The notes below the pieces were generated by a model. The model was not told the DNA's origin and did not search any database. It worked only from the letters and a program-made list of their open reading frames with translations. Positions 1 to 9,133 of a stretch of 64,000 nt of DNA are shown piece after piece. This stretch comes from an uncultured Gemmatimonadota bacterium (GTDB taxonomy: Bacteria > SM23-81 > DAOVCL01): assembly GCA_964626665.1 (NCBI GenBank), contig CAZVGK010000010.1:22850-86849 (forward strand). The letters run 5' to 3'. Position numbers and translations under genes: made by a program. The number at the start of each line of letters is the position of its first letter. Position 1 is the stretch's first letter.

Positions 1-170
1 ATACTGGGTTAGGGAGCTTAGATAAGCTCTATAATGCCGTAACCGTTTTTACTTGCTGCCGATCCCAGAAGGCAAAGACGGTTATGGGGAGGGGAATGAG
101 CACTGAAGATACATCCTTATTAAAAAAGCAAAGGCGTAGATGATTGCACTGCAAAAAGGCTGAAGGTTGG

Positions 171-244
171 GTAGCCGCAACCTTCAGGTTGCGTAAGTAG
201 TTGGTTTATCGAGCTCCTTTTCGCAGGCTAAAGCCTGCGGCTAC
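171..244. repeat. GTAG-type REP/REPIN-like doublet
   Basis: GTAGCCGCAACCTTCAGGTTGCG ... CGCAGGCTAAAGCCTGCGGCTAC: two hairpins with inverted GTAG/CTAC ends. Related copies at 21327-21348, 52987-53039 and a deleted copy near 19965. Confidence 0.75.
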
Positions 245-309
245 CGATTTTAGTTTTTGTAGTAGAATAGATGGCATTGAAAATTGAAAAGGGAATAACC
301 TTAAAGATT

Positions 310-1140
310 ATGGAATATAAGGTAATAACTCCGAATGATTCTGAATATCCGAAAAGGCTCGTTGAAAGGTTAGGAGACAAATCTCCTGAGAAGATATATT
401 ATAGCGGCCCATTAGAATTCCTTGACCGTTTCACTATGGCAGTGATTTCTGCTGATTCGATAACTGGGCAGGCACTGAATGAGACAAATCAGGTTCTGTT
501 CACTGTAAGGGAATATGAGATGAATTATATTGGTGGTTGGCATTCGGTAATGGAAACCGAGATTTTCCGGTTGGGGCTATTCAGAAGAAATACTACGGTA
601 ACTCTCTTTACTGCAAAAGGGTTGCAGGTTGAGACATTTGAATTTTTTCTGAAGGATAGGTTTTATCCCCCCTTGCACGAATTTCCGGAAAGGGATGAGT
701 ATTTCAGACGGGTCAAAACTGGTGAATTATTGATACTTTCTCTTAGTGACCCGGATGAGACGAGGCAGTTGCGAAAGAATATAATGGAGAGAAACTGGAT
801 ATCTTGTGCTCTTGCCGATATTGTTTTTATCCCCTATGGTCCCAAAGGCTCAAAGACTTACACAATGGCGAAGAGAATTTCTTCCACGAATATACCGGCC
901 TTTACACTTGATAGTGGCGAATGCAAGGACCTTCTTCAACTTGGCATTCCTGGATTTAAGCGAAAAACAGTGAAAGCCTTCCTTGAGGGCAACGGGGCAA
1001 AATTAGCAGTTCCACCGGATGAGATAAGGAAGTCTGTTGAAGCATATAAAAATCCAACGAGTCAGCAACTATCATTTATAAAGGAGCCCACCCAGACGGA
1101 ACTAGAGTTTAAGAAAAACAGCAAGGATAGTGAGCCATAA
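310..1140 (+). CDS. DprA/Smf-like (SLOG superfamily) protein, divergent
   Basis: N-terminal 'SEYPKRL..RLG..SPEKIYYSG' and 'RNWISCALADIVFIP...GSKT' resemble DprA motifs. Start placed at ATG 310; ORF track starts at 271. Confidence 0.6.
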   Translation: MEYKVITPNDSEYPKRLVERLGDKSPEKIYYSGPLEFLDRFTMAVISADSITGQALNETNQVLFTVREYEMNYIGGWHSVMETEIFRLGLFRRNTTVTLFTAKGLQVETFEFFLKDRFYPPLHEFPERDEYFRRVKTGELLILSLSDPDETRQLRKNIMERNWISCALADIVFIPYGPKGSKTYTMAKRISSTNIPAFTLDSGECKDLLQLGIPGFKRKTVKAFLEGNGAKLAVPPDEIRKSVEAYKNPTSQQLSFIKEPTQTELEFKKNSKDSEP

Positions 1141-1221
1141 GTATTGTTAGGGCTTATTGCTCTATAACCATCCTTGCCTGCCATCGACTTCAGAAAGTAA
1201 GGACAATTAGGGGGAAGGAGA

Positions 1222-3243
1222 ATGGAAAAAGACCTCTTTGAGAAAAAAGAAGCGCAGATGGTTAGCAAACACAACATTCTCGAAAACTATCTTGAGCCGT
1301 GGATAATAATCTTTTCCTCTGCGGGACAAAAATGGGCAAAGAAACTATATTATGTGGATGCCTTTGCTGGAACGGGAAGATTTGCTACCGGAGAAGAGGG
1401 TTCTCCAGTAATTGGAGCAAGACTTTTGAGGCATTACTGGAAACCGCAAATATACTACTGTTGTATATGCATAGAAAAGGAAAGCAAACGAGTAAAGGAA
1501 CTTGAAAGTGAATTAAATCAATTTCGAGATAAAGTGGATATAAAAATTTACCCCGGTGAATTTGATGATAAAACGGATGAAGTGATTAACGAAATTGGTA
1601 ATCATCCTGCCTTTTTCTTGATTGATCCTGAAGGGTTTTCAGGGATGAGCTTTTTGTCTATTGAAAAAATTCTTGAGTTACCGCATAAAGAAGTTCTAAT
1701 TAACTTTCAATATAATGCAGTACAACGCTGGTTGAAAGCAAAAAAGGTGGGAAAAACAATTACTGATTTATTTGGAACTGACAAGTGGATAGAGATTCCC
1801 CGAAAGGGACTCCAGAAAAGCGAAAAGGAAAGAGCATTAGTCGAACTTTATAAATCCCAGTTGAGAGCAAAGGGATATTATGTCTGGTACTTCAGGAATA
1901 AAATCCCAGCAAAGAATAGAACATTCTACTATCTTGTTTACGCTACCAGGAACCTCACAGGTTTTAAGATAATGAAGGGAGTGATTTTTAAGGAAGAAAG
2001 TAGAAGATATTTTGAGCCAAATTTATTTGAGGAAGTAGATTTTACGGAGTTTCAAAACGAATTGTTAAGAAAGTATAAAGGAACTAAGGTTTTGTATAAA
2101 GAAGTTTTGGTGTATGTTTTACAGGAAACGAACTATCTGGCAGGGGACCTGGATTTAGTTATAAAAAATGTGAGAATTAAAAAGGAATATAACCCAAAAG
2201 AAAGGAATAACTTCTGGCTTGTTTTCCCTATGTCTTACGGAGCATTGAATACTCGTAAATTCCATATTCGGGAGAGTGATATTTCTTTTGTATCTCCTAA
2301 AACTATTACAAGAGGGCCAAGAATCTTATACAATGAGGAAGATTTAGTAAGGCAGGTTGCTGATGGCTCCATCATTAAACGATTTGATAAAACTCCTTAT
2401 CCAGTTAAGCCCACGGATGTTGTTTGTCCTCATTTCCTTGAGTTGAAATGGGCTTATGGGTGTCCGTTTAATTGTAGCTGGTGTTACTTGAAGGGCACTT
2501 TTCGTTTTAGGCCGGAGGGGATAAAACCTGCTTATAAACCTATGGAAAAGGTAAAATTGCATACGGAGACATTTCTTCAGAAAGTGAAGATTCCAGAGAT
2601 TCTTAATACTGGTGAGATAGCCGATTCCTTAATGAAAGAGAATGGTGATAGTCCATTCTCTAAATTCATCATCCCCATCTTTGAAACTCAGAACATGCAC
2701 AAGGTTTTGTTTGTTACCAAATCATCGAATATAAAGAACTTTTTAGAGATGCCCTCTCATAGGCAGGTTATAGTGAGTTTCAGTCTTAATGCTTTCCCGG
2801 TAGCAGAGAGGTGGGAGAAAGGGGCTCCCCCTGTTCCAAAACGAATCGAGGCGGCGAAGAAAGTCGCCGACGCAGGCTATGAAGTCAGGATAAGAATTGA
2901 CCCAATGATACCAGTGGAAAACTGGAAGGAATATTATATCCAACTGATAGACGAGATATTCACGAGATTTGTTCCTGAAAGAATTACCTTGGGTTCTTTA
3001 AGAGGGCTTCAGAGCACAATCAACGGCACTAATGACACCAGTTGGGTTAAATATCTAAAAGAAAGCTCAAACTGGGGGAGAAAAATAGATTTTACCACAA
3101 GATGTAGAATCTACAAAACCATTATTGGGTATCTGAGTGACAAATACAATTATTCCCATATAGCCTTGTGCAAGGAAACAAAGGCGATGTGGGAGAAATT
3201 AGGGATGGATTGGACCCAGATTAGATGTAATTGCGTATGGTAG
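1222..3243 (+). CDS. Fusion of three-Cys-motif partner protein (TcmP-like, methyltransferase fold) with spore photoproduct lyase-like radical SAM domain
   Basis: N-half: 'KH.IL..YL..W', 'YVDAFAGTG', 'EGSP', 'FFLIDPEG', 'EVLINF'. C-half: 'GCPFNCSWCYL' (CxxxCxxC), 'TGEIADSL', 'VTKS', 'SFSLN', 'RIDPMIP', 'LCKE'. Confidence 0.8.
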   Translation: MEKDLFEKKEAQMVSKHNILENYLEPWIIIFSSAGQKWAKKLYYVDAFAGTGRFATGEEGSPVIGARLLRHYWKPQIYYCCICIEKESKRVKELESELNQFRDKVDIKIYPGEFDDKTDEVINEIGNHPAFFLIDPEGFSGMSFLSIEKILELPHKEVLINFQYNAVQRWLKAKKVGKTITDLFGTDKWIEIPRKGLQKSEKERALVELYKSQLRAKGYYVWYFRNKIPAKNRTFYYLVYATRNLTGFKIMKGVIFKEESRRYFEPNLFEEVDFTEFQNELLRKYKGTKVLYKEVLVYVLQETNYLAGDLDLVIKNVRIKKEYNPKERNNFWLVFPMSYGALNTRKFHIRESDISFVSPKTITRGPRILYNEEDLVRQVADGSIIKRFDKTPYPVKPTDVVCPHFLELKWAYGCPFNCSWCYLKGTFRFRPEGIKPAYKPMEKVKLHTETFLQKVKIPEILNTGEIADSLMKENGDSPFSKFIIPIFETQNMHKVLFVTKSSNIKNFLEMPSHRQVIVSFSLNAFPVAERWEKGAPPVPKRIEAAKKVADAGYEVRIRIDPMIPVENWKEYYIQLIDEIFTRFVPERITLGSLRGLQSTINGTNDTSWVKYLKESSNWGRKIDFTTRCRIYKTIIGYLSDKYNYSHIALCKETKAMWEKLGMDWTQIRCNCVW

Positions 3244-3408
3244 AATAATGGAGTTTCTGAATTAAAGGATTCGTCTTATGCTAAAAAACACCGAATGACA
3301 CCGAAAAAAATAGCACTTCATTCTTGAGTGAAACTTTTGTTTTGGATTTGTTCAGTGATTTTCGGTGTTTAATGTCCAACCCGGGATTATTAGAGATGGT
3401 AAAAGCTG

Positions 3409-3747
3409 ATGGGTAAAAATACGAAAAATATACCGGATTTGGAGAGGCTGATCAATTTTATATCCTCGAAATATCTTCCAGAGAAGATCATTCTCTTTGG
3501 CTCTTACGGAACCCCATCAAGACGAGATAATTCCGATATAGACCTGCTGATCATAAAAAAGACAGATAAGAAGTTTGTAGATAGAGTAGTAGAACTGATG
3601 CAGCTCATCAGGAGTCAATTTGGGGTTGAATATCCTGTTGAGCCTCTTGTTTATACTCCAGCCGAATTTAGAGGAGCCGAAATGACAAGCAGTCTATTTA
3701 TTCGGACAGTTTTGTCGAAAGGGGTTATTTTGTATGAAAAAAAATAA
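3409..3747 (+). CDS. Minimal nucleotidyltransferase (MNT antitoxin)
   Basis: 'IILFGS......SDIDLLII' motif; overlaps the downstream HEPN gene. Confidence 0.9.
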   Translation: MGKNTKNIPDLERLINFISSKYLPEKIILFGSYGTPSRRDNSDIDLLIIKKTDKKFVDRVVELMQLIRSQFGVEYPVEPLVYTPAEFRGAEMTSSLFIRTVLSKGVILYEKK

Positions 3748-4141
3748 ACCTGCAGCGGAGATTTGGCTGAGAAAAGCTAAGGAGGATCTTGCCTTTGCGG
3801 AGGCTGGTTGGAAGGAGAGCAAGATAGCATCAGTTACCTGCGTGCTTTGCCAGCAGGCGGTAGAGAAGGCCTTGAAATCTCTTCTGGAATTAGAAAATAT
3901 CAGCATAGAAAGAACCCCGTCTCTTAAGACTCACAGATTGGTGGATATAATTGAGGAATGTAGAGGATATTATCCTCAGGTAGAGATGTTCACCGATGAT
4001 TGTGACAAATTAACGGTCTATTATTTTGATAGGTATCCAGCTGATATTCCCTTGAATTTGACCGAAGAAGATGCCGCATTTGCCCTGGAGACAGCGGAGA
4101 AGATCCTAAGTTCTGTAGAGGGGATAATATCAAAAGCCTGA
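3734..4141 (+). CDS. HEPN domain protein (MNT-HEPN pair)
   Basis: 'WLRKAKEDL..A', 'CQQAVEKALKS', 'KTHRL', 'RYP'. Confidence 0.9.
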   Translation: MKKNKPAAEIWLRKAKEDLAFAEAGWKESKIASVTCVLCQQAVEKALKSLLELENISIERTPSLKTHRLVDIIEECRGYYPQVEMFTDDCDKLTVYYFDRYPADIPLNLTEEDAAFALETAEKILSSVEGIISKA

Positions 4142-4229
4142 AGGGATTGAGGAATCCTTCGCATGATGATGACATCCCCAAAGAGCGATTGGGGATATAT
4201 CCAGAAGATTGTGATGTGAGGAGGTGTTT

Positions 4230-4772
4230 ATGAAAGTTGGCCTCTTAAGCGACAGCCACGGTGAGTTGGAGAACCTGCGTCGGGCCGCCAAAGTTCTGGC
4301 CGATCAGGTGGAACTCATCGTCCACCTGGGGGACGATTGGGATGATTGCCGGGTGCTTGAGGAGATGGGTCTGAAATTCATCAGGGTGCCCGGGGTCTTC
4401 AGCAGTTACTATCAGGCCCCTCAGATCGCCAACCGCAGGATAGAGAAGTTCAACCACTGGAAGGTTCTTCTCTCCCATACCTCTACCTCCCATAAGAACG
4501 ATCTTCCTCAGGATATGAAACCAGAGGTTGTTGTGGCCAGAAGGGAGGTAGATGTTGTCCTCTATGGCCATACCCATATCCCTAAAATTGAGAAATCACA
4601 GGGGATCTTATGGGTCAACCCCGGCCATCTGAAACCGGAGGATAGGAAGGGATACTCTCCCAGCTATGCCATCTTAGATTTTGGGCCCCAAGAGGTTTGG
4701 GTTAGAATCTTTGGCCTGGAGAAGGGGGAGATCTTGGCCGAGAGTGAAATTAGGGACACTTCCCATTTTTAA
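4230..4772 (+). CDS. Metallophosphoesterase, YfcE/MJ0936 family
   Basis: 'SDSHG', 'HLGD', 'GHTH', 'NPG' motifs; RBS GGAGGTG before ATG 4230. Confidence 0.9.
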   Translation: MKVGLLSDSHGELENLRRAAKVLADQVELIVHLGDDWDDCRVLEEMGLKFIRVPGVFSSYYQAPQIANRRIEKFNHWKVLLSHTSTSHKNDLPQDMKPEVVVARREVDVVLYGHTHIPKIEKSQGILWVNPGHLKPEDRKGYSPSYAILDFGPQEVWVRIFGLEKGEILAESEIRDTSHF

Positions 4773-4998
4773 AAATAAACTTTAGATTAAGGTTGCATAA
4801 GTGCACACCCTCTATCAGACACTGGAAATCACTGAAACAATGAGAAACTCTGAGGAAGAATGTGCATTATAATTTTTGATTGGTTCGGTGTTATTCGGTA
4901 TTTTCTTGAATAATTTGGAATAAAGGTCCTGTAAATCCTATTATCCGGTCAGAAAAGCCCGCTTGCAGGGCGCTTAGTAGAGTTTAACCCCGGTTTGG

Positions 4999-5589
4999 CT
5001 ACCAGCCGAGTTCTACCTTGAGGGCGGCCCAGCTCTTTGCCCCATTTCTTTCCACGGGTTCATCCCTCCAGAAGCTTAGCCTCCAGAGGTTATCGTCCCC
5101 TAAGCTCAGCCTGAAACAGGCCAGGCCAGAGGCGGGATGGGATAAGGGGGCATTGGCAGATCCCTCCACCACCAGATAGTAGCGTCGATATAGGGTTGCC
5201 TTCTTGGGGTAAGTCTCATCGGGGAGCAGGCTGTCTTCTTCCAGGGAGAGAAAGATGGAGACGGAATCCGGAATCACCTGGGAGAATATTCCCTGGGTGA
5301 CCTTTACCTCCTTGGTCTTGTCCCAGTCCTGAAAAAGAGATGGGGAGCGGAGAGACTCCTCTGGTGCAGAGAAGGTAAAGGATTTCGCCAAGCAGTTGGC
5401 AAAGTTGACTAAGGATTCATCTCTGTAGGCCCTGGTCAGGTTGTTTATCACCTCTTGGGGTCTGGTGGGGACCTCCCATCTACCTGCCTTTCCCTTTGGC
5501 TCTCCGCTTTTCCGTAAGGAAAAGGGGTTCTTGCAGGCTGTTCCCCAGATGAGGAGAAGTATAAAAAGTAAGAAGACCTTTTTATTCAT
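4999..5589 (-). CDS. Hypothetical lipoprotein, possibly NTF2-like fold
   Basis: Signal peptide with lipobox-like 'GTAC'; start abuts the stop of the upstream gene. Confidence 0.65.
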   Translation of the reverse strand: MNKKVFLLFILLLIWGTACKNPFSLRKSGEPKGKAGRWEVPTRPQEVINNLTRAYRDESLVNFANCLAKSFTFSAPEESLRSPSLFQDWDKTKEVKVTQGIFSQVIPDSVSIFLSLEEDSLLPDETYPKKATLYRRYYLVVEGSANAPLSHPASGLACFRLSLGDDNLWRLSFWRDEPVERNGAKSWAALKVELGW

Positions 5590-7331
5590 TAGTAGAACAG
5601 GTTAATGTTTAAATTGAGGTAATCGAAGCTCTCCCCACCAAGAATGACCCTGCGGCTGCCCCGGAACAGGATCAGACCCCCTCTGCCCAGGGAGAGGCTT
5701 CCCTCTAAGGATAAGCGTAGTCTTTTCTCCTTTGCCGAAAGACCCCACCCACCTCCTAAGGGGGAGACCTCTGGGGTCCATTCCCTCTCTACCCTGTAGC
5801 TCAGGCCTGGGGCAAACCGCAGGCCCTTGTTGGGTAGATAACCGAAGGAGAAGCCCCATTGATTGGTTGTTCTCTTCCAGCTTAACCTTTCCACCCACTC
5901 GTCCTCCCACTTTAGTTTTCCATAATCCTCCCACCTATGGAGGTAGTTTAGTTTCCCATTGAGCCTACTGCTCAGCCTCCAGGAGAGCTCGCTCTTCGCC
6001 TCCAAGCCCCGCAAGAGATTATCCATCTGTTGGCTCTGGGCCCAGTCATAAGTCTGGTATCGGGCGTTTAGCCTGAATTTCTGCCAGAGGGATAACCATT
6101 TGCCTATCCTCCAGATCGTTGCCGGAGCCAGGGAGTAGTTAGTGATGGAGTTGTTGTCTGCCGATTTCTCCCCCTGGATATAAACCTGTCTCTTTATCTC
6201 CATCTCCCCCCTGACTTTGAGGTGGAGGTAGGGAGTCAAACGGTGGAATATATGCCCTCGCAGAAACCTGTTGGCCTCATCCCGATTGTCATAGTTAGTC
6301 TGGACCAGTGGTTTTATTGACCTCAACCCGGCGAAGCCCTCAAACTTTAGGGAATCAGCAGGGGATGGAATCCAACTGACCATCCCTCCTAACTCTCCGC
6401 TCTCCAGTTTCTCATCTCTGAGATCCTCCTCGTAATCGTCCTGCCCTCGTAGGTATCTGTAGAAGAGGGAGAGCCGATAGCGATTTCCCCAGGGGTGCTC
6501 AAGAGTGAGGGAGAATCCATCCCTGAGTTCCTTTACCACCTTGGCCCATTTTTCCTTCATCCAGCGGCGATGGGTGATCGCCTGGGAACGGAAGAGGAAG
6601 AGGTCTCCCCGAAAACCCTTAATCAGGCTAATCCGGGAGTTAAACCTTGCCTCTCTTACCCTTTCCCTTCTCCCTCCGGTGGAGTCTAAATTATCCCCCA
6701 AAAAGTAGTTCCTCTCCTGGGTGGAATCCAGAAGGGAAACCCCGTTCTTGACCCCCCAGCTCTTCAGTCTTATTTGGAAGCCAAGGTTACTCCCTTTCTT
6801 GGGGACCAGGCTCAGGGCCTCTTTCCTCTGGCTAAACTTGAGGTTTGCTGTAATCTTTTGATCTAAGGGGAGTTTTATCCTTCCCTGCAAGCCATAAAGC
6901 AAACCGGATAGCGAGGACCCTTCGTCCCTTCTCAAGGAGATCCCGCCCCCTTGCAGGGAAAGAAAGAGATTGGGACCCTGTTGCAGCTCTATCCCTGACC
7001 CCACTTTGGCCTCCCTTCTTCCTTGGCCCCTCACTTCCATTTCTGTCCCGACAAAGAAGGGGTTCCAAGAGAGGTTATTCCTTAGGGGCATAAAAAGGTT
7101 AAACCCTAAGAACCGATTCCTCTCCCTCCTCTCCAAGCCAGGGAGAGAGAAGAGGGAAGAGGTAGTGAGGCCCTTGAGGTTGACCCTCAGCCCGGGTAGG
7201 CTATCTTGATAAAGGATTGTGTTTCCCCACCTTTTCGTTCGACCATTTAGGTCATAGTCGAAGCGGTACTCTAAGGCTGAGGCGGTTATGGGTAAGCTAA
7301 GCAAAAAGATGGCTATAAATTTAAGTTTCAT
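5589..7331 (-). CDS. Putative outer-membrane beta-barrel protein
   Basis: Signal peptide, alternating amphipathic strands, aromatic C-terminus 'LNINLFY'. Confidence 0.6.
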   Translation of the reverse strand: MKLKFIAIFLLSLPITASALEYRFDYDLNGRTKRWGNTILYQDSLPGLRVNLKGLTTSSLFSLPGLERRERNRFLGFNLFMPLRNNLSWNPFFVGTEMEVRGQGRREAKVGSGIELQQGPNLFLSLQGGGISLRRDEGSSLSGLLYGLQGRIKLPLDQKITANLKFSQRKEALSLVPKKGSNLGFQIRLKSWGVKNGVSLLDSTQERNYFLGDNLDSTGGRRERVREARFNSRISLIKGFRGDLFLFRSQAITHRRWMKEKWAKVVKELRDGFSLTLEHPWGNRYRLSLFYRYLRGQDDYEEDLRDEKLESGELGGMVSWIPSPADSLKFEGFAGLRSIKPLVQTNYDNRDEANRFLRGHIFHRLTPYLHLKVRGEMEIKRQVYIQGEKSADNNSITNYSLAPATIWRIGKWLSLWQKFRLNARYQTYDWAQSQQMDNLLRGLEAKSELSWRLSSRLNGKLNYLHRWEDYGKLKWEDEWVERLSWKRTTNQWGFSFGYLPNKGLRFAPGLSYRVEREWTPEVSPLGGGWGLSAKEKRLRLSLEGSLSLGRGGLILFRGSRRVILGGESFDYLNLNINLFY

Positions 7332-7356
7332 CTTTGTGGATATATATATTCCCAGA

Positions 7357-7510
7357 GTAACAGTTCACCACGGACTCTCACGGAATGGACCACCAGCAAT
7401 GGTCAATTAGCAATTAACAATTAGCAAGTTAAAATGAAATAAAGCCAGAAAATCTGAGGTGTAAAGTTCCATTGATAATTGTCAATTGTTAATTGGTCAT
7501 TTCGTATCTG
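7357..7510. repeat. Composite repeat element (AACAGTTCACCACGGA end plus inverted CAATTAR heptamer arrays), copy 1
   Basis: ~150 bp homologous to 9151-9330. Confidence 0.8.
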
Positions 7511-7520
7511 CTCAGGGTTA

Positions 7521-8354
7521 TCAGCTCTGAATTTTATGCAGATAATCCCAGAGAACCATACTCAAACGGGAGAAATCCTCCAGGCTGAGAACCTCCCCCC
7601 TCAGGGAAGGGTCAATCCCGGCCCGGGAGAAGACCTCATCCTCCTTCCCCGGGGGAAGGAGCTCCTTTAAAGCATTTTTGATAGTTTTTCTCCTCTTTCC
7701 AAATGCCCCCTTGACTAACTTCCTGAAGAAGAGCTCATCTGGAAGGGGAACGGCTGGTTTTTCCCGCACCATTAACCTTAAGACAGTAGCTTCCACTTTG
7801 GGCCTGGGCCGGAAGGAGGAAGGGGAGAGGTCAAACAGCTTAGTGGGGCGGAAGTATAGTTGGGAGATAACCGATAGGGAGCTATAGTCCTTCCCTCCCG
7901 GAGGTGAAGTAACCCTCTTGGCCACTTCCTTCTGTAGGGTTAAGACAATTTGCTTGATCCTCTCCCTCTGAGTAATCAGCTTCTCTATAACCGGAGAGGT
8001 AAGATGATAGGGTATGTTTCCCACAAGCTTCAGATTTCTCCCCCAAGGGGAGAGATCAAATTTTAAGAAGTCCTCACAGAAGATGAGAAGCTTCTCAGAC
8101 TTTAGGTATTCCTCGAGGATCTGATAGAGACGATGGTCTATCTCTACCCCGATCACCTGAGCTCCATACTTAAGGAGTTCTCTGGTGAGGAGACCACTCC
8201 CCGGTCCGATCTCCACTACCACATCCTGGGGGACAAGTTGCAGGTTTTGCGCAATTTTTTGGGCGGCTGCCCGGTTGATGAGGAAATTCTGGCCTAAACT
8301 CCTTTTGGGGAGAAACCTTAGTCCCAGTGAGGGGAGCAGAATTCCCCTCCTCAT
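7521..8354 (-). CDS. rsmA: 16S rRNA m6,6A dimethyltransferase
   Basis: 'KRSLGQNFL', 'VEIGPGSG', 'VGNIPYHLT', 'LQKEVA', 'RRKT'. Confidence 0.97.
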   Translation of the reverse strand: MRRGILLPSLGLRFLPKRSLGQNFLINRAAAQKIAQNLQLVPQDVVVEIGPGSGLLTRELLKYGAQVIGVEIDHRLYQILEEYLKSEKLLIFCEDFLKFDLSPWGRNLKLVGNIPYHLTSPVIEKLITQRERIKQIVLTLQKEVAKRVTSPPGGKDYSSLSVISQLYFRPTKLFDLSPSSFRPRPKVEATVLRLMVREKPAVPLPDELFFRKLVKGAFGKRRKTIKNALKELLPPGKEDEVFSRAGIDPSLRGEVLSLEDFSRLSMVLWDYLHKIQS

Positions 8355-9133
8355 TTGGCCTTTACCTCCGAAAGAGCAAAGAGCCTAATTGCTGCTTGGG
8401 TGGTAGTGGTGACTAAGGTCTCTAGATCCATCCCTTTAGCCAGGGCGATCCTTTCAGCCACCAGTCTTACCCATTTCGGCTCGTTCCTCTCCCCTCGATG
8501 GGGAACCGGGGCCAGGTAGGGACTGTCCGTCTCCAATAGAAGCCTCTCCAAGGGGACTGACTTGGCTACCTCCAGGGCCTGGGATTTGGGAAAGGTAATC
8601 AGTCCGGTAAAGGAGATGTGCAGACCCATAGCCAGTGCCTTTTCCGCCTGTTCTCTGGTCCCCTCAAAGCAGTGGAGAACCCCTTTCCGCCCTCTGTTCT
8701 CCTCCTGGAGAACCCTTAGGGCCTCCTCAACAGCTCCTCTGGTATGCACCACTATGGGGAGATTCAACTCCTGGGCCAATTCTACCTGGGCCCTAAATGC
8801 CACCACCTGATCTGATTTTGGGGAGAGGTTTCTGTAGAAGTCCAACCCTATCTCCCCAATGGCCTTCACTTGAGGGCTCCGGGCAAGTTCCCTCAATTTA
8901 AGCAGGTCGCCCGGCTTAAACCCTTTGGCCTCATGGGGGTGAATACCTACGGCGGCAAAGAGGCCGGCAAACTTTTGGGCAAGCTCGATAGCCATCCGGC
9001 TGGAGGGAAAGTCTATTCCAGGGACGAGGATATGGCCTATTCCCACATCCTTTGCCCTTTGGATAACCTCTTCCCTGTCGGGATCGAACTCGGGGAGGTT
9101 AAGATGGGCGTGGGTATCTATGAAGGGTATCAT
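8351..9133 (-). CDS. tatD: TatD family hydrolase
   Basis: 'IDTHAHL', 'GIHPH', 'IGEIGLD', 'HCF', 'LETDSPYLAP'. Confidence 0.96.
   Translation of the reverse strand: MIPFIDTHAHLNLPEFDPDREEVIQRAKDVGIGHILVPGIDFPSSRMAIELAQKFAGLFAAVGIHPHEAKGFKPGDLLKLRELARSPQVKAIGEIGLDFYRNLSPKSDQVVAFRAQVELAQELNLPIVVHTRGAVEEALRVLQEENRGRKGVLHCFEGTREQAEKALAMGLHISFTGLITFPKSQALEVAKSVPLERLLLETDSPYLAPVPHRGERNEPKWVRLVAERIALAKGMDLETLVTTTTQAAIRLFALSEVKAK

Follow-up and report, generated by a model that had tools for sequence, protein, structure and literature searches.

What is the function of an enzyme that joins a TcmP-type methyltransferase fold and a radical S-adenosylmethionine (SAM) domain in a single chain, and does the DprA-like gene that precedes it belong to the same system? 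The question is raised by one end of a 64,000-nucleotide stretch of DNA, hereafter the window, from an uncultured Gemmatimonadota bacterium (contig CAZVGK010000010.1, positions 22,850 to 86,849). The first 4.4 kb of the window carry four genes, all on the same strand: a DprA-like gene, the gene of the TcmP–radical SAM fusion and an MNT–HEPN pair. An initial annotation, made from the letters alone, took the first two for parts of one nucleic-acid modification, repair or anti-phage module, which would couple a SAM-dependent transferase, a radical SAM enzyme resembling spore photoproduct lyase (SPL) and a SLOG-type protein. The analysis described here leads to a different partition. The fusion belongs to a family spread over bacteria and archaea, and we predict, with our confidence evenly poised, that it is a DNA-directed modification (or repair) enzyme associated with restriction–modification (RM) genes, the DprA-like gene being a separate accessory of RM loci.

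The fusion protein and its two domains

The gene of the fusion is composed of the following elements.

1222–3243, plus strand: TcmP–radical SAM fusion, 673 residues, one uninterrupted open reading frame (ORF), matching TIGR04474 and PF20903
1222–2286, plus strand: N-terminal TcmP domain, residues 1–355, an RlmJ-like class I SAM-methyltransferase fold (about residues 1–265) followed by a three-helix linker
2287–3243, plus strand: C-terminal SPL-like radical SAM domain, residues 356–673, assigned by PF20903 and by fold
2461–2484, plus strand: radical SAM cluster motif CX3CX2C (C414, C418, C421), aligning with the cluster cysteines of SPL

The ORF, described in the initial annotation as one frame carrying both motif sets, is indeed uninterrupted, and its matches to TIGR04474 and to the SPL family PF20903 exceed the respective cut-offs. 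Among 5.8 billion proteins searched, 580 proved homologous to the fusion (E ≤ 0.001); of the 120 matches listed, which stem from many independent assemblies, 118 span at least 95% of the query, with 44–94% identity. The names given to these homologues vary, some being called TcmP (NCBI) and others spore photoproduct lyase (JGI). Relatives are encoded in 131 species genomes when contigs are taken from one genome per species (about 185,579 species genomes), and 266 representatives of a 50%-identity library match a radical SAM domain profile at E ≤ 1e-30. In Logan contigs from three runs (X1, X9, X16), a 7213-base piece spans positions 220–4400 with zero differences, and in run X17 a 2496-base piece covering 220–2715 crosses the domain junction. 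These runs may be the source samples and are hence not independent evidence; the independent support for the fusion is given by the fused homologues from other samples. With the many full-length homologues, the 131 species genomes and the continuity of the Logan contigs, an assembly artefact or chimera is rejected, and the fusion is not peculiar to this assembly.

The N-terminal domain is matched by TIGR04474 with 173.3 bits (cut-off 53) at residues 15–255, over profile positions 5–259 of 263. The PADLOC model PDC-M30A (PDLC04567) also matches, with 86.3 bits over residues 13–304, and no further PDC-M30 component was matched among the four window proteins scanned. In the structural model of the domain (predicted local distance difference test score, pLDDT, 85.6), the best fold match is RlmJ, the 23S rRNA m6A2030 methyltransferase (6qe5_A; Z 17.9, root-mean-square deviation (rmsd) 3.1 Å over 210 residues). 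The top ten matches are RlmJ/DUF519 entries, and the next ones, unrelated methyltransferases, stand at Z 14.2. The likeness to RlmJ extends to the helical insertion and, by eye, to the order of motifs common to both: an N-terminal KH, D-x-x-A-G-x-G (motif I), GSP, an acidic motif II and the (I)DP of motif IV. However, motif IV reads D-P-P-Y in RlmJ, whereas it is D-P-E-G-F in the window and D-P-x-G-F/Y in the TcmP family, and RlmJ is a stand-alone housekeeping enzyme. Residues D46, G52, S61, D135, P136 and Y236 are invariant in 35 TcmP-domain sequences. The linker of two relatives (P0099 and P0075) matches PF22560, GMT-wHTH; this family was not matched in a Pfam scan of the window's own fusion protein.

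The C-terminal domain is matched by PF20903 at residues 410–582 with 67 bits (cut-off 27), and by the general radical SAM family PF04055 with 21.6 bits, under the cut-off of 29.5. It combines the [4Fe-4S]/SAM motif CX3CX2C with a partial TIM-barrel fold whose structural matches are exclusively radical SAM enzymes (Z 11–18), which places it in the radical SAM superfamily. SPL is the only solved relative found by sequence in a profile search of the PDB (E 7e-14). It is also the best fold match of the model (pLDDT 77.9), with 4rh0 at Z 18.0, rmsd 2.9 Å, 233 aligned residues and a Foldseek E of 3.5e-11, the next radical SAM enzyme being at Z 13.0. The partner of TcmP is therefore SPL-like and fused to it, as the initial annotation had it. 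All 19 fused homologues compared keep C414, C418 and C421, as do all 45 radical SAM sequences. In the latter, which come from bacteria and archaea, the mean column identity is 67%, against 26% for the TcmP domain, an asymmetry consistent with an unchanging part for catalysis and a variable one for targeting.

With SPL itself (SplB; TIGR04070, PDB 4fhc), the C-terminal domain shares the fold and the CX3CX2C motif at the same place, and it keeps the tyrosine that follows the last cluster cysteine (Y98 of SPL, invariant Y422 here) and the aspartate of a T-S-D stretch (D468). The differences are nevertheless numerous. Identity is about 15–21%, and the equivalog models fail by far (TIGR04070, 76.9 bits against a cut-off of 400; TIGR03886, 39.6 against 437.55). 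Tyr96 is replaced by an invariant Trp420. Cys140 (Geobacillus numbering), the hydrogen donor in SPL catalysis, is replaced by Glu465, invariant in 19 of 19 homologues; the position was identified from the C140A and C140S chains in a profile alignment with 4rh0, 4fhe and 4fhg. Four additional cysteines (C402, C650, C669, C671) are invariant in the 45 sequences, which makes seven with the three of the cluster, and C669 and C671 lie in a C-terminal C-N-C tail beyond the part aligned with SPL. Finally, the family is linked to TcmP and occurs in non-spore-forming, uncultured bacteria and in archaea. Since Cys140 has become an invariant glutamate, four cysteines have been added and the equivalog models are missed so widely, alignment and model together indicate a domain that is SPL-like in fold and not an SPL.

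Another SPL-like radical SAM ORF, of about 368–399 residues and 24–32% identical to the C-terminal domain of the fusion, is present in each of the seven genomes of the phylum used for comparison (G000, that of the window, and G001–G006, two congeners being among them). In the window's genome it lies at G000:C9:76972-77763, and it occupies one place in each of G001–G006. It is presumably a housekeeping SplB-type gene.

Arrangement and surroundings of the family

The arrangement of the two parts was classified with the family profile in 81 loci, namely the window locus and the best 80 of the 131 one-genome-per-species stretches.

Fused TcmP–radical SAM: 30 of 81 loci
Split and adjacent, TcmP then radical SAM: 23 of 81 loci
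Split and adjacent, reversed order: 2 of 81 loci, both archaeal
Radical SAM gene, no TcmP detected: 17 of 81 loci
Longer radical SAM ORF, no TcmP detected: 1 of 81 loci
Contig end, arrangement cannot be judged: 8 of 81 loci

Hence, of the 73 loci that can be judged, 55 carry both parts, either fused or side by side. Two of the 17 TcmP-less loci have a 270-residue ORF upstream that BLAST places in the family. A quick maximum-likelihood tree, built from the radical SAM domain, requires at least 12 changes of the label "fused" along well-supported branches. Sequences of different phyla are interspersed in it, the nearest rows to the window being metagenome-assembled genomes of WOR-3, Aerophobetes and Clostridia. 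The arrangement, the tree and the genomes without TcmP together designate the radical SAM protein as the constant element, and TcmP as a frequent, repeatedly fused and dispensable partner.

The fused form was looked for in cultured phages and in plasmids, where none of the 13 and none of the 96 matching records, respectively, cover at least 80% of the query. Among 2.9 million viral contigs, the family is found in three related ones. There, two tandem SPL-like radical SAM paralogues (321 and about 370 residues) are followed by a convergent TcmP gene (L175:5947-9225, likewise L176 and L177), with apparent phage structural genes near. As for the loci with the radical SAM gene alone, the idea that a neighbouring DNA N6-methylase substitutes for TcmP found moderate support only and was not retained: the 73 neighbours from 16 loci of this kind include two matches each to N6_Mtase, N6_N4_Mtase and Eco57I, and four to Methylase_S. 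Polbeta/NTP_transf_2 proteins account for three of these 73 neighbours.

RM genes are the commonest functional neighbours of the family. An RM or defence-type gene lies at most three genes away in at least 24 of the 80 related loci, and a strict RM gene in 18, these counts being lower bounds because annotation covered recurrent or tightly coupled neighbours only. In 20 of the 80, such a gene is immediately upstream, usually with a small or negative gap, many being between −7 and +25 nucleotides. These 20 upstream genes comprise nine of the Eco57I/type IIG kind, two each for HsdS, ResIII, AlbA_2 and RadC-N, and one each for HsdM, type ISP and a helicase. In L039 and L061, an AlbA_2/HATPase_c_4 gene lies just 5′ of the radical SAM gene, and L043 has one nearby; in L020, a gene of the same cluster lies downstream.

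A different environment is seen where the TcmP–radical SAM unit lies inside a cinA-ligT-recA-recX-alaS cluster (L013:1405-5365; L078, L080 and L081, about 4000–8500). In Ignavibacteria the unit separates recX from alaS, and in another lineage it separates recA from recX. In Dehalococcoidia loci, the flanks are mtnA/mtnP.

The window locus and its DprA-like gene

Besides the fusion, the beginning of the window contains the following features.

168–250, no strand: dispersed palindromic repeat resembling repetitive extragenic palindromic (REP) elements, two hairpins (arms 170–196 and 219–245), in the interval from the ResIII gene, which precedes the window, to the DprA-like gene
310–1140, plus strand: DprA-like gene, SLOG-type Rossmann protein of 276 residues from M14 (PF02481); the ORF is open from 271 (271–1140, 289 residues)
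1141–1221, plus strand: spacer of 81 bp, with a purine-rich ribosome-binding stretch directly before the ATG of the fusion, by sequence inspection
3285–3375, no strand: second dispersed REP-like palindromic repeat family, 3′ of the fusion gene (arms 3286–3309 and 3347–3370)
3409–3747, plus strand: MNT-type nucleotidyltransferase, antitoxin-like half of an MNT–HEPN pair (PF18765, 40.6 bits; PF01909, 35.7 bits)
3734–4141, plus strand: HEPN-domain protein (PF05168, 65.3 bits), overlapping the MNT gene by 14 nucleotides

The AT-rich character given to this DNA by the initial annotation is borne out by a GC content of 0.35–0.42 over positions 1–4000 vs. 0.47–0.53 over 4500–9000, and the adjoining MNT–HEPN pair by its Pfam matches. 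On its own contig, the fusion ends a series that reads N6_N4 methyltransferase, GHKL ATPase, D12 methyltransferase, AlbA_2, ResIII, DprA-like and fusion, after which comes MNT–HEPN. The part of this defence island that precedes the window (G000:C10:2850-22849, L001) holds RadC, an N6_N4 DNA methylase of 661 residues, a GHKL/HATPase_c_3 protein of 557, two uncharacterised ORFs of 245 and 259, the D12 adenine methylase, the AlbA_2/HATPase_c_4 protein and the ResIII restriction-type protein. The latter, of 832 residues, is immediately 5′ of the DprA-like gene, just beyond the window edge. A full-length fusion occurs in one of the seven genomes of the phylum and is missing from both congeners, and in a comparison of island boundaries the flanking genes sit on different contigs in congener G001. 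The DprA-like and fusion genes are adjacent, separable accessory genes located at the 3′ extremity of a low-GC RM/defence island gained by horizontal transfer, and the MNT–HEPN pair is a separate neighbouring module. An MNT gene, with or without HEPN, stands directly or closely 3′ of the fusion or radical SAM gene in the window (3409–4141) and in L083, L028 and L073.

The DprA-like and fusion genes are bracketed by two different families of repeats resembling REP elements or miniature inverted-repeat transposable elements, both scattered over many contigs. The 168–250 repeat has near-full copies on contigs C3, C7, C52 and C25 and partial copies on many further contigs of the same genome; Logan contigs break there, and depth is raised. 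The 3285–3375 repeat has short exact copies on more than 20 contigs of the genome, and its Logan depth is doubled. In all four runs, Logan contigs also contain a joint from 245 to 3285, skipping 3039 bases. Taken as an empty site, this joint was rejected, having only 22 letters on its shorter side and lying within the REP-like repeats; it is treated as a repeat or graph artefact.

The DprA-like gene was set by the initial annotation 81 bp upstream of the fusion, with its start at 310. Both points hold: the gap is 1141–1221, and the start is probably M14, at 310, which is the first residue in 16 of 18 aligned homologues. PF02481 (DNA_processg_A) matches residues 12–207 with 37.1 bits (cut-off 29.6). 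The DprA equivalog TIGR00732, however, reaches 33.4 bits against a cut-off of 191.15, and a PDB profile search finds DprA chains only at E 0.08. A canonical DprA is encoded elsewhere in seven of seven genomes of the phylum (262–275 bits), the copy of the window's genome lying on contig C16 (270 bits), whereas a DprA-like copy (about 34 bits) is confined to the window's genome among the seven. The DprA-like gene is an accessory paralogue and not the canonical DprA. Weak PADLOC matches to PsyrA and ShosA, of the PsyrTA and ShosTA defence pairs, cover residues 12–84 only (35.9 and 20.6 bits). Unlike in those pairs, the upstream 832-residue protein has no PsyrT or ShosT match, and shows weak REase_III and PbeA matches only (26–40 bits).

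The DprA-like family numbers 458 homologues, mostly of about 276 residues and 60–90% identical. Its own surroundings were surveyed in 80 metagenome loci picked as closest relatives (L082–L161, L082 being the window's own contig). In 61 of the 80, a type IIG restriction-methylase of about 1089 residues lies immediately 5′, its end overlapping the DprA-like start (for example L121:2756-6807, and 60 further loci within the set). This partner scores 883 bits with the PADLOC type IIG restriction-methyltransferase model and has Eco57I and N6_Mtase Pfam matches. The possibility that the window's upstream ResIII protein is a relative of this usual partner was rejected (BLASTP E 3.7). In contrast, a fusion or radical SAM gene lies 3′ of the DprA-like gene in 4 of the 80 loci (L082–L085), all of them relatives at least 86% identical. 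L083 is without the TcmP domain, and in L084 and L085 the type IIG gene is followed by the DprA-like gene and then by the fusion. When the radical SAM loci are taken as the starting point, a DprA-like neighbour is found in 2 of the 81, the window and L063, where two unrelated ORFs separate the genes; a family-profile search added no further DprA-like neighbours at these 81 loci. Wherever the two co-occur, the DprA-like copy shares at least 76% identity with that of the window. A general SLOG linkage, which the initial annotation had supposed, is thus rejected by single-sequence and profile searches from both sides. The DprA-like gene probably adjoins the fusion because both are accessories of restriction loci and not parts of a dedicated system, and it should not be annotated as part of the TcmP–radical SAM system. 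That it pairs with a type IIG restriction-methylase opens a separate line of inquiry, possibly leading to an accessory protein of restriction enzymes; in Helicobacter pylori, DprA reportedly eases the restriction barrier.

Possible functions and relation to known systems

A role in nucleic-acid modification, repair or defence is reasonable for the fusion because the protein is conserved, contains two folds whose coupling recurs and lies in RM/defence surroundings. To this extent the module of the initial annotation is retained, with its methyltransferase-fold and radical SAM halves and with SLOG removed as third component. As modelled, both folds appear to be SAM-dependent, and the nearest solved relatives of each act on nucleic-acid bases. 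In the RM-associated, DNA-directed enzyme that we predict, the TcmP part would select and flip the target DNA base and would probably methylate it, adenine being suggested by the RlmJ likeness. The radical SAM part would cleave a second SAM to give a 5′-deoxyadenosyl radical, and would then abstract a hydrogen from the presented base. The reaction would place a non-canonical mark on DNA, or reverse such a mark, in concert with the neighbouring restriction enzymes. A more specific version, to which we lean less and which we regard as tentative, concerns radical-SAM-dependent DNA hypermodification in anoxic-sediment bacteria and archaea. A fast-evolving RlmJ-like TcmP would choose and methylate the base, and a near-invariant SPL-like subunit, with a second Cys4 metal site, would convert it. 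The mark would serve as a self- or counter-label for type IIG, type I and type III-like restriction enzymes, and some phages would use the same pair.

Several observations weigh against the predicted RM-associated, DNA-directed enzyme. RM/defence neighbours are present in only about 30% of the loci, and many loci lie amid housekeeping genes such as mtnA/mtnP, recA-recX-alaS or mnmA. Seventeen loci, plus the one with a longer ORF, have the radical SAM gene without detectable TcmP, and TIGR04474 is absent genome-wide from five of five tested genomes with the radical SAM gene alone, which may be incomplete; the radical SAM part can accordingly work without TcmP. Methyl transfer by TcmP is not assured, motif IV being D-P-E-G-F, unlike that of RlmJ. 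The sequence relation to RlmJ is itself non-significant (hhalign probability 6.7% over 24 columns at motif I; hidden Markov model E 0.8). Since the nearest fold of the N-terminal domain is an rRNA enzyme, the substrate may also be RNA. Finally, DprA-like and radical SAM genes co-occur in two different genomic settings, that of the window and that of L063, and a loose link between them may exist.

Four other explanations have to be weighed. The likeliest of them, though in our view an unlikely one, is a DNA repair enzyme whose SPL-like domain would reverse a lesion found by TcmP, such as collateral damage by methyltransferases or ultraviolet or anoxic lesions. It has in its favour that the closest solved fold is the repair enzyme SPL, that Y98 of SPL is kept as Y422, that RadC-type genes recur nearby and that 5 of the 80 loci are in or beside the cinA-ligT-recA-recX-alaS cluster, at differing positions and in two lineages. 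Other SplB-like radical SAM proteins are also tied to SOS repair operons (PMC3765255). However, the catalytic Cys140 aligns with an invariant glutamate and both SPL equivalogs are missed (76.9 vs. 400 and 39.6 vs. 437.55 bits), a further SPL-like paralogue is already encoded in each genome of the phylum, the enzyme is distributed sporadically and within islands, and recA-alaS may be a mere insertion site. A dedicated three-activity system, in which the DprA/SLOG protein would bind single-stranded DNA or a nucleotide signal for the fusion, is harder still to accept and seems very improbable. The genes are indeed 81 bp apart on the same strand, with no terminator-like site in the spacer (a scan of 1–4400 gave a single site, elsewhere). 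The pair recurs in L083, L084 and L085, in L063, whose setting differs, some 2 kb separate a DprA-like gene from a stand-alone radical SAM gene, and DprA-like proteins are partners in PsyrTA and ShosTA defence pairs (weak PADLOC matches; PDB 9vzo is titled "DprA-like antitoxin protein ShosA"). Against this stand the co-occurrence of 2/81 and 4/80, to which the profile adds none, the identity of at least 76% among co-occurring copies, the regular partnership of the DprA-like family with the overlapping type IIG RM gene (61/80), the missing TcmP domain in L083 and the two unrelated ORFs in L063.

Where tRNA bases are hypermodified, a methyltransferase fold is typically paired with a radical SAM enzyme, as in the wybutosine pathway. 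An enzyme modifying tRNA or rRNA, with no DNA or defence role, would agree with this pairing, with RlmJ as the nearest fold of the N-terminal domain, with TYW2 among the weaker fold matches and with the tRNA-related neighbours (MnmA at three loci, a MiaB-like protein at one, AlaRS at six). Yet the family is found in 131 of some 185,579 species genomes and, within the phylum, in one genome out of seven, the fusion lies in low-GC island DNA, RM genes are the commonest functional neighbours and the only close solved relative of the C-terminal domain acts on DNA, so that we give an RNA enzyme little credence. We would be equally surprised to find an anti-phage effector of the kind of the PADLOC candidate PDC-M30, damaging or marking invading nucleic acid and not the cell's own genome. 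The match of PDC-M30A to the TcmP domain (86.3 bits) is limited to that half, and PDC-M30 is a candidate system found only as a name in two survey papers. The defence-island setting with MNT–HEPN, AlbA_2 and RM genes is favourable to such an effector. Prophage defence genes often lie near an immunity repressor or integrase, and in Gordonia phage Easley the TcmP and DUF5131 genes adjoin both. A TcmP of Sinorhizobium meliloti is listed beside the defence helicase Hna in an expression table (PMC12445080). In contrast, the three viral contigs carry two radical SAM copies and TcmP by apparent phage structural genes, for which self-modification by the phage fits at least equally.

Returning to the RM-associated, DNA-directed enzyme, the conservation of its radical SAM domain across bacterial phyla and archaea, the repeated fusion of this domain to, and separation from, a methyltransferase-fold partner and its frequent placement in restriction operons make the family an attractive object of study. 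If a new DNA base is made, this would bring new chemistry to prokaryotic epigenetics and to the phage–host arms race, and would assign a function to the TcmP family. In the literature library searched, supplementary files aside, no functional study of TcmP, DUF5131, PDC-M30 or the SPL-like family was found.

The TcmP family is already known from database curation, as is the fact that it pairs with a radical-SAM-type protein, and PADLOC includes a TcmP-like candidate system; what is new is the SPL-like nature of the partner, its fusion to TcmP, its changed active site and the association with restriction loci. The usual partner of TcmP, according to the initial annotation, is a separate DUF5131 gene (three-Cys-motif protein, phage Gp37/Gp68, PF07505). 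Such pairs were confirmed in two annotated records, those of Gordonia phage Easley (gp39/gp38) and of a Mycolicibacterium chubuense plasmid, with 341 and 325 bits to PF07505, and a haloarchaeal (Halopiger) plasmid has TcmP paired with a generic radical SAM gene. The likeness is that TcmP is paired with a partner of the radical SAM superfamily on mobile or accessory DNA; the difference is that the partner in the fusion family is SPL-like and often fused to TcmP. A PF07505 gene is found in none of the seven genomes of the phylum, that of the window included. The radical SAM domain showed no detectable relation to DUF5131 (hhalign probability 0.07% against one DUF5131 protein), and its kinship with the Halopiger gene is weak (6.7%). 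At a broader scale, RadicalSAM.org puts DUF5131 and SPL both in Megacluster-5 (PMC9477430).

In PMC8989533, no radical SAM enzymes other than SPL and one phage isomerase are credited with an action on DNA, and the TcmP–radical SAM family, as predicted here, would offer a third case, a cellular one. The isomerase, gp53 of phage M6, is described there as an SPL-like radical SAM enzyme that installs a thymidine hypermodification in DNA. The partners named with it are a kinase, an amino-acid transferase and a pyridoxal phosphate enzyme, and not TcmP. Likened by description, gp53 nevertheless gives a precedent for the proposed chemistry, being an SPL-like radical SAM enzyme that builds a modified DNA base instead of repairing one.

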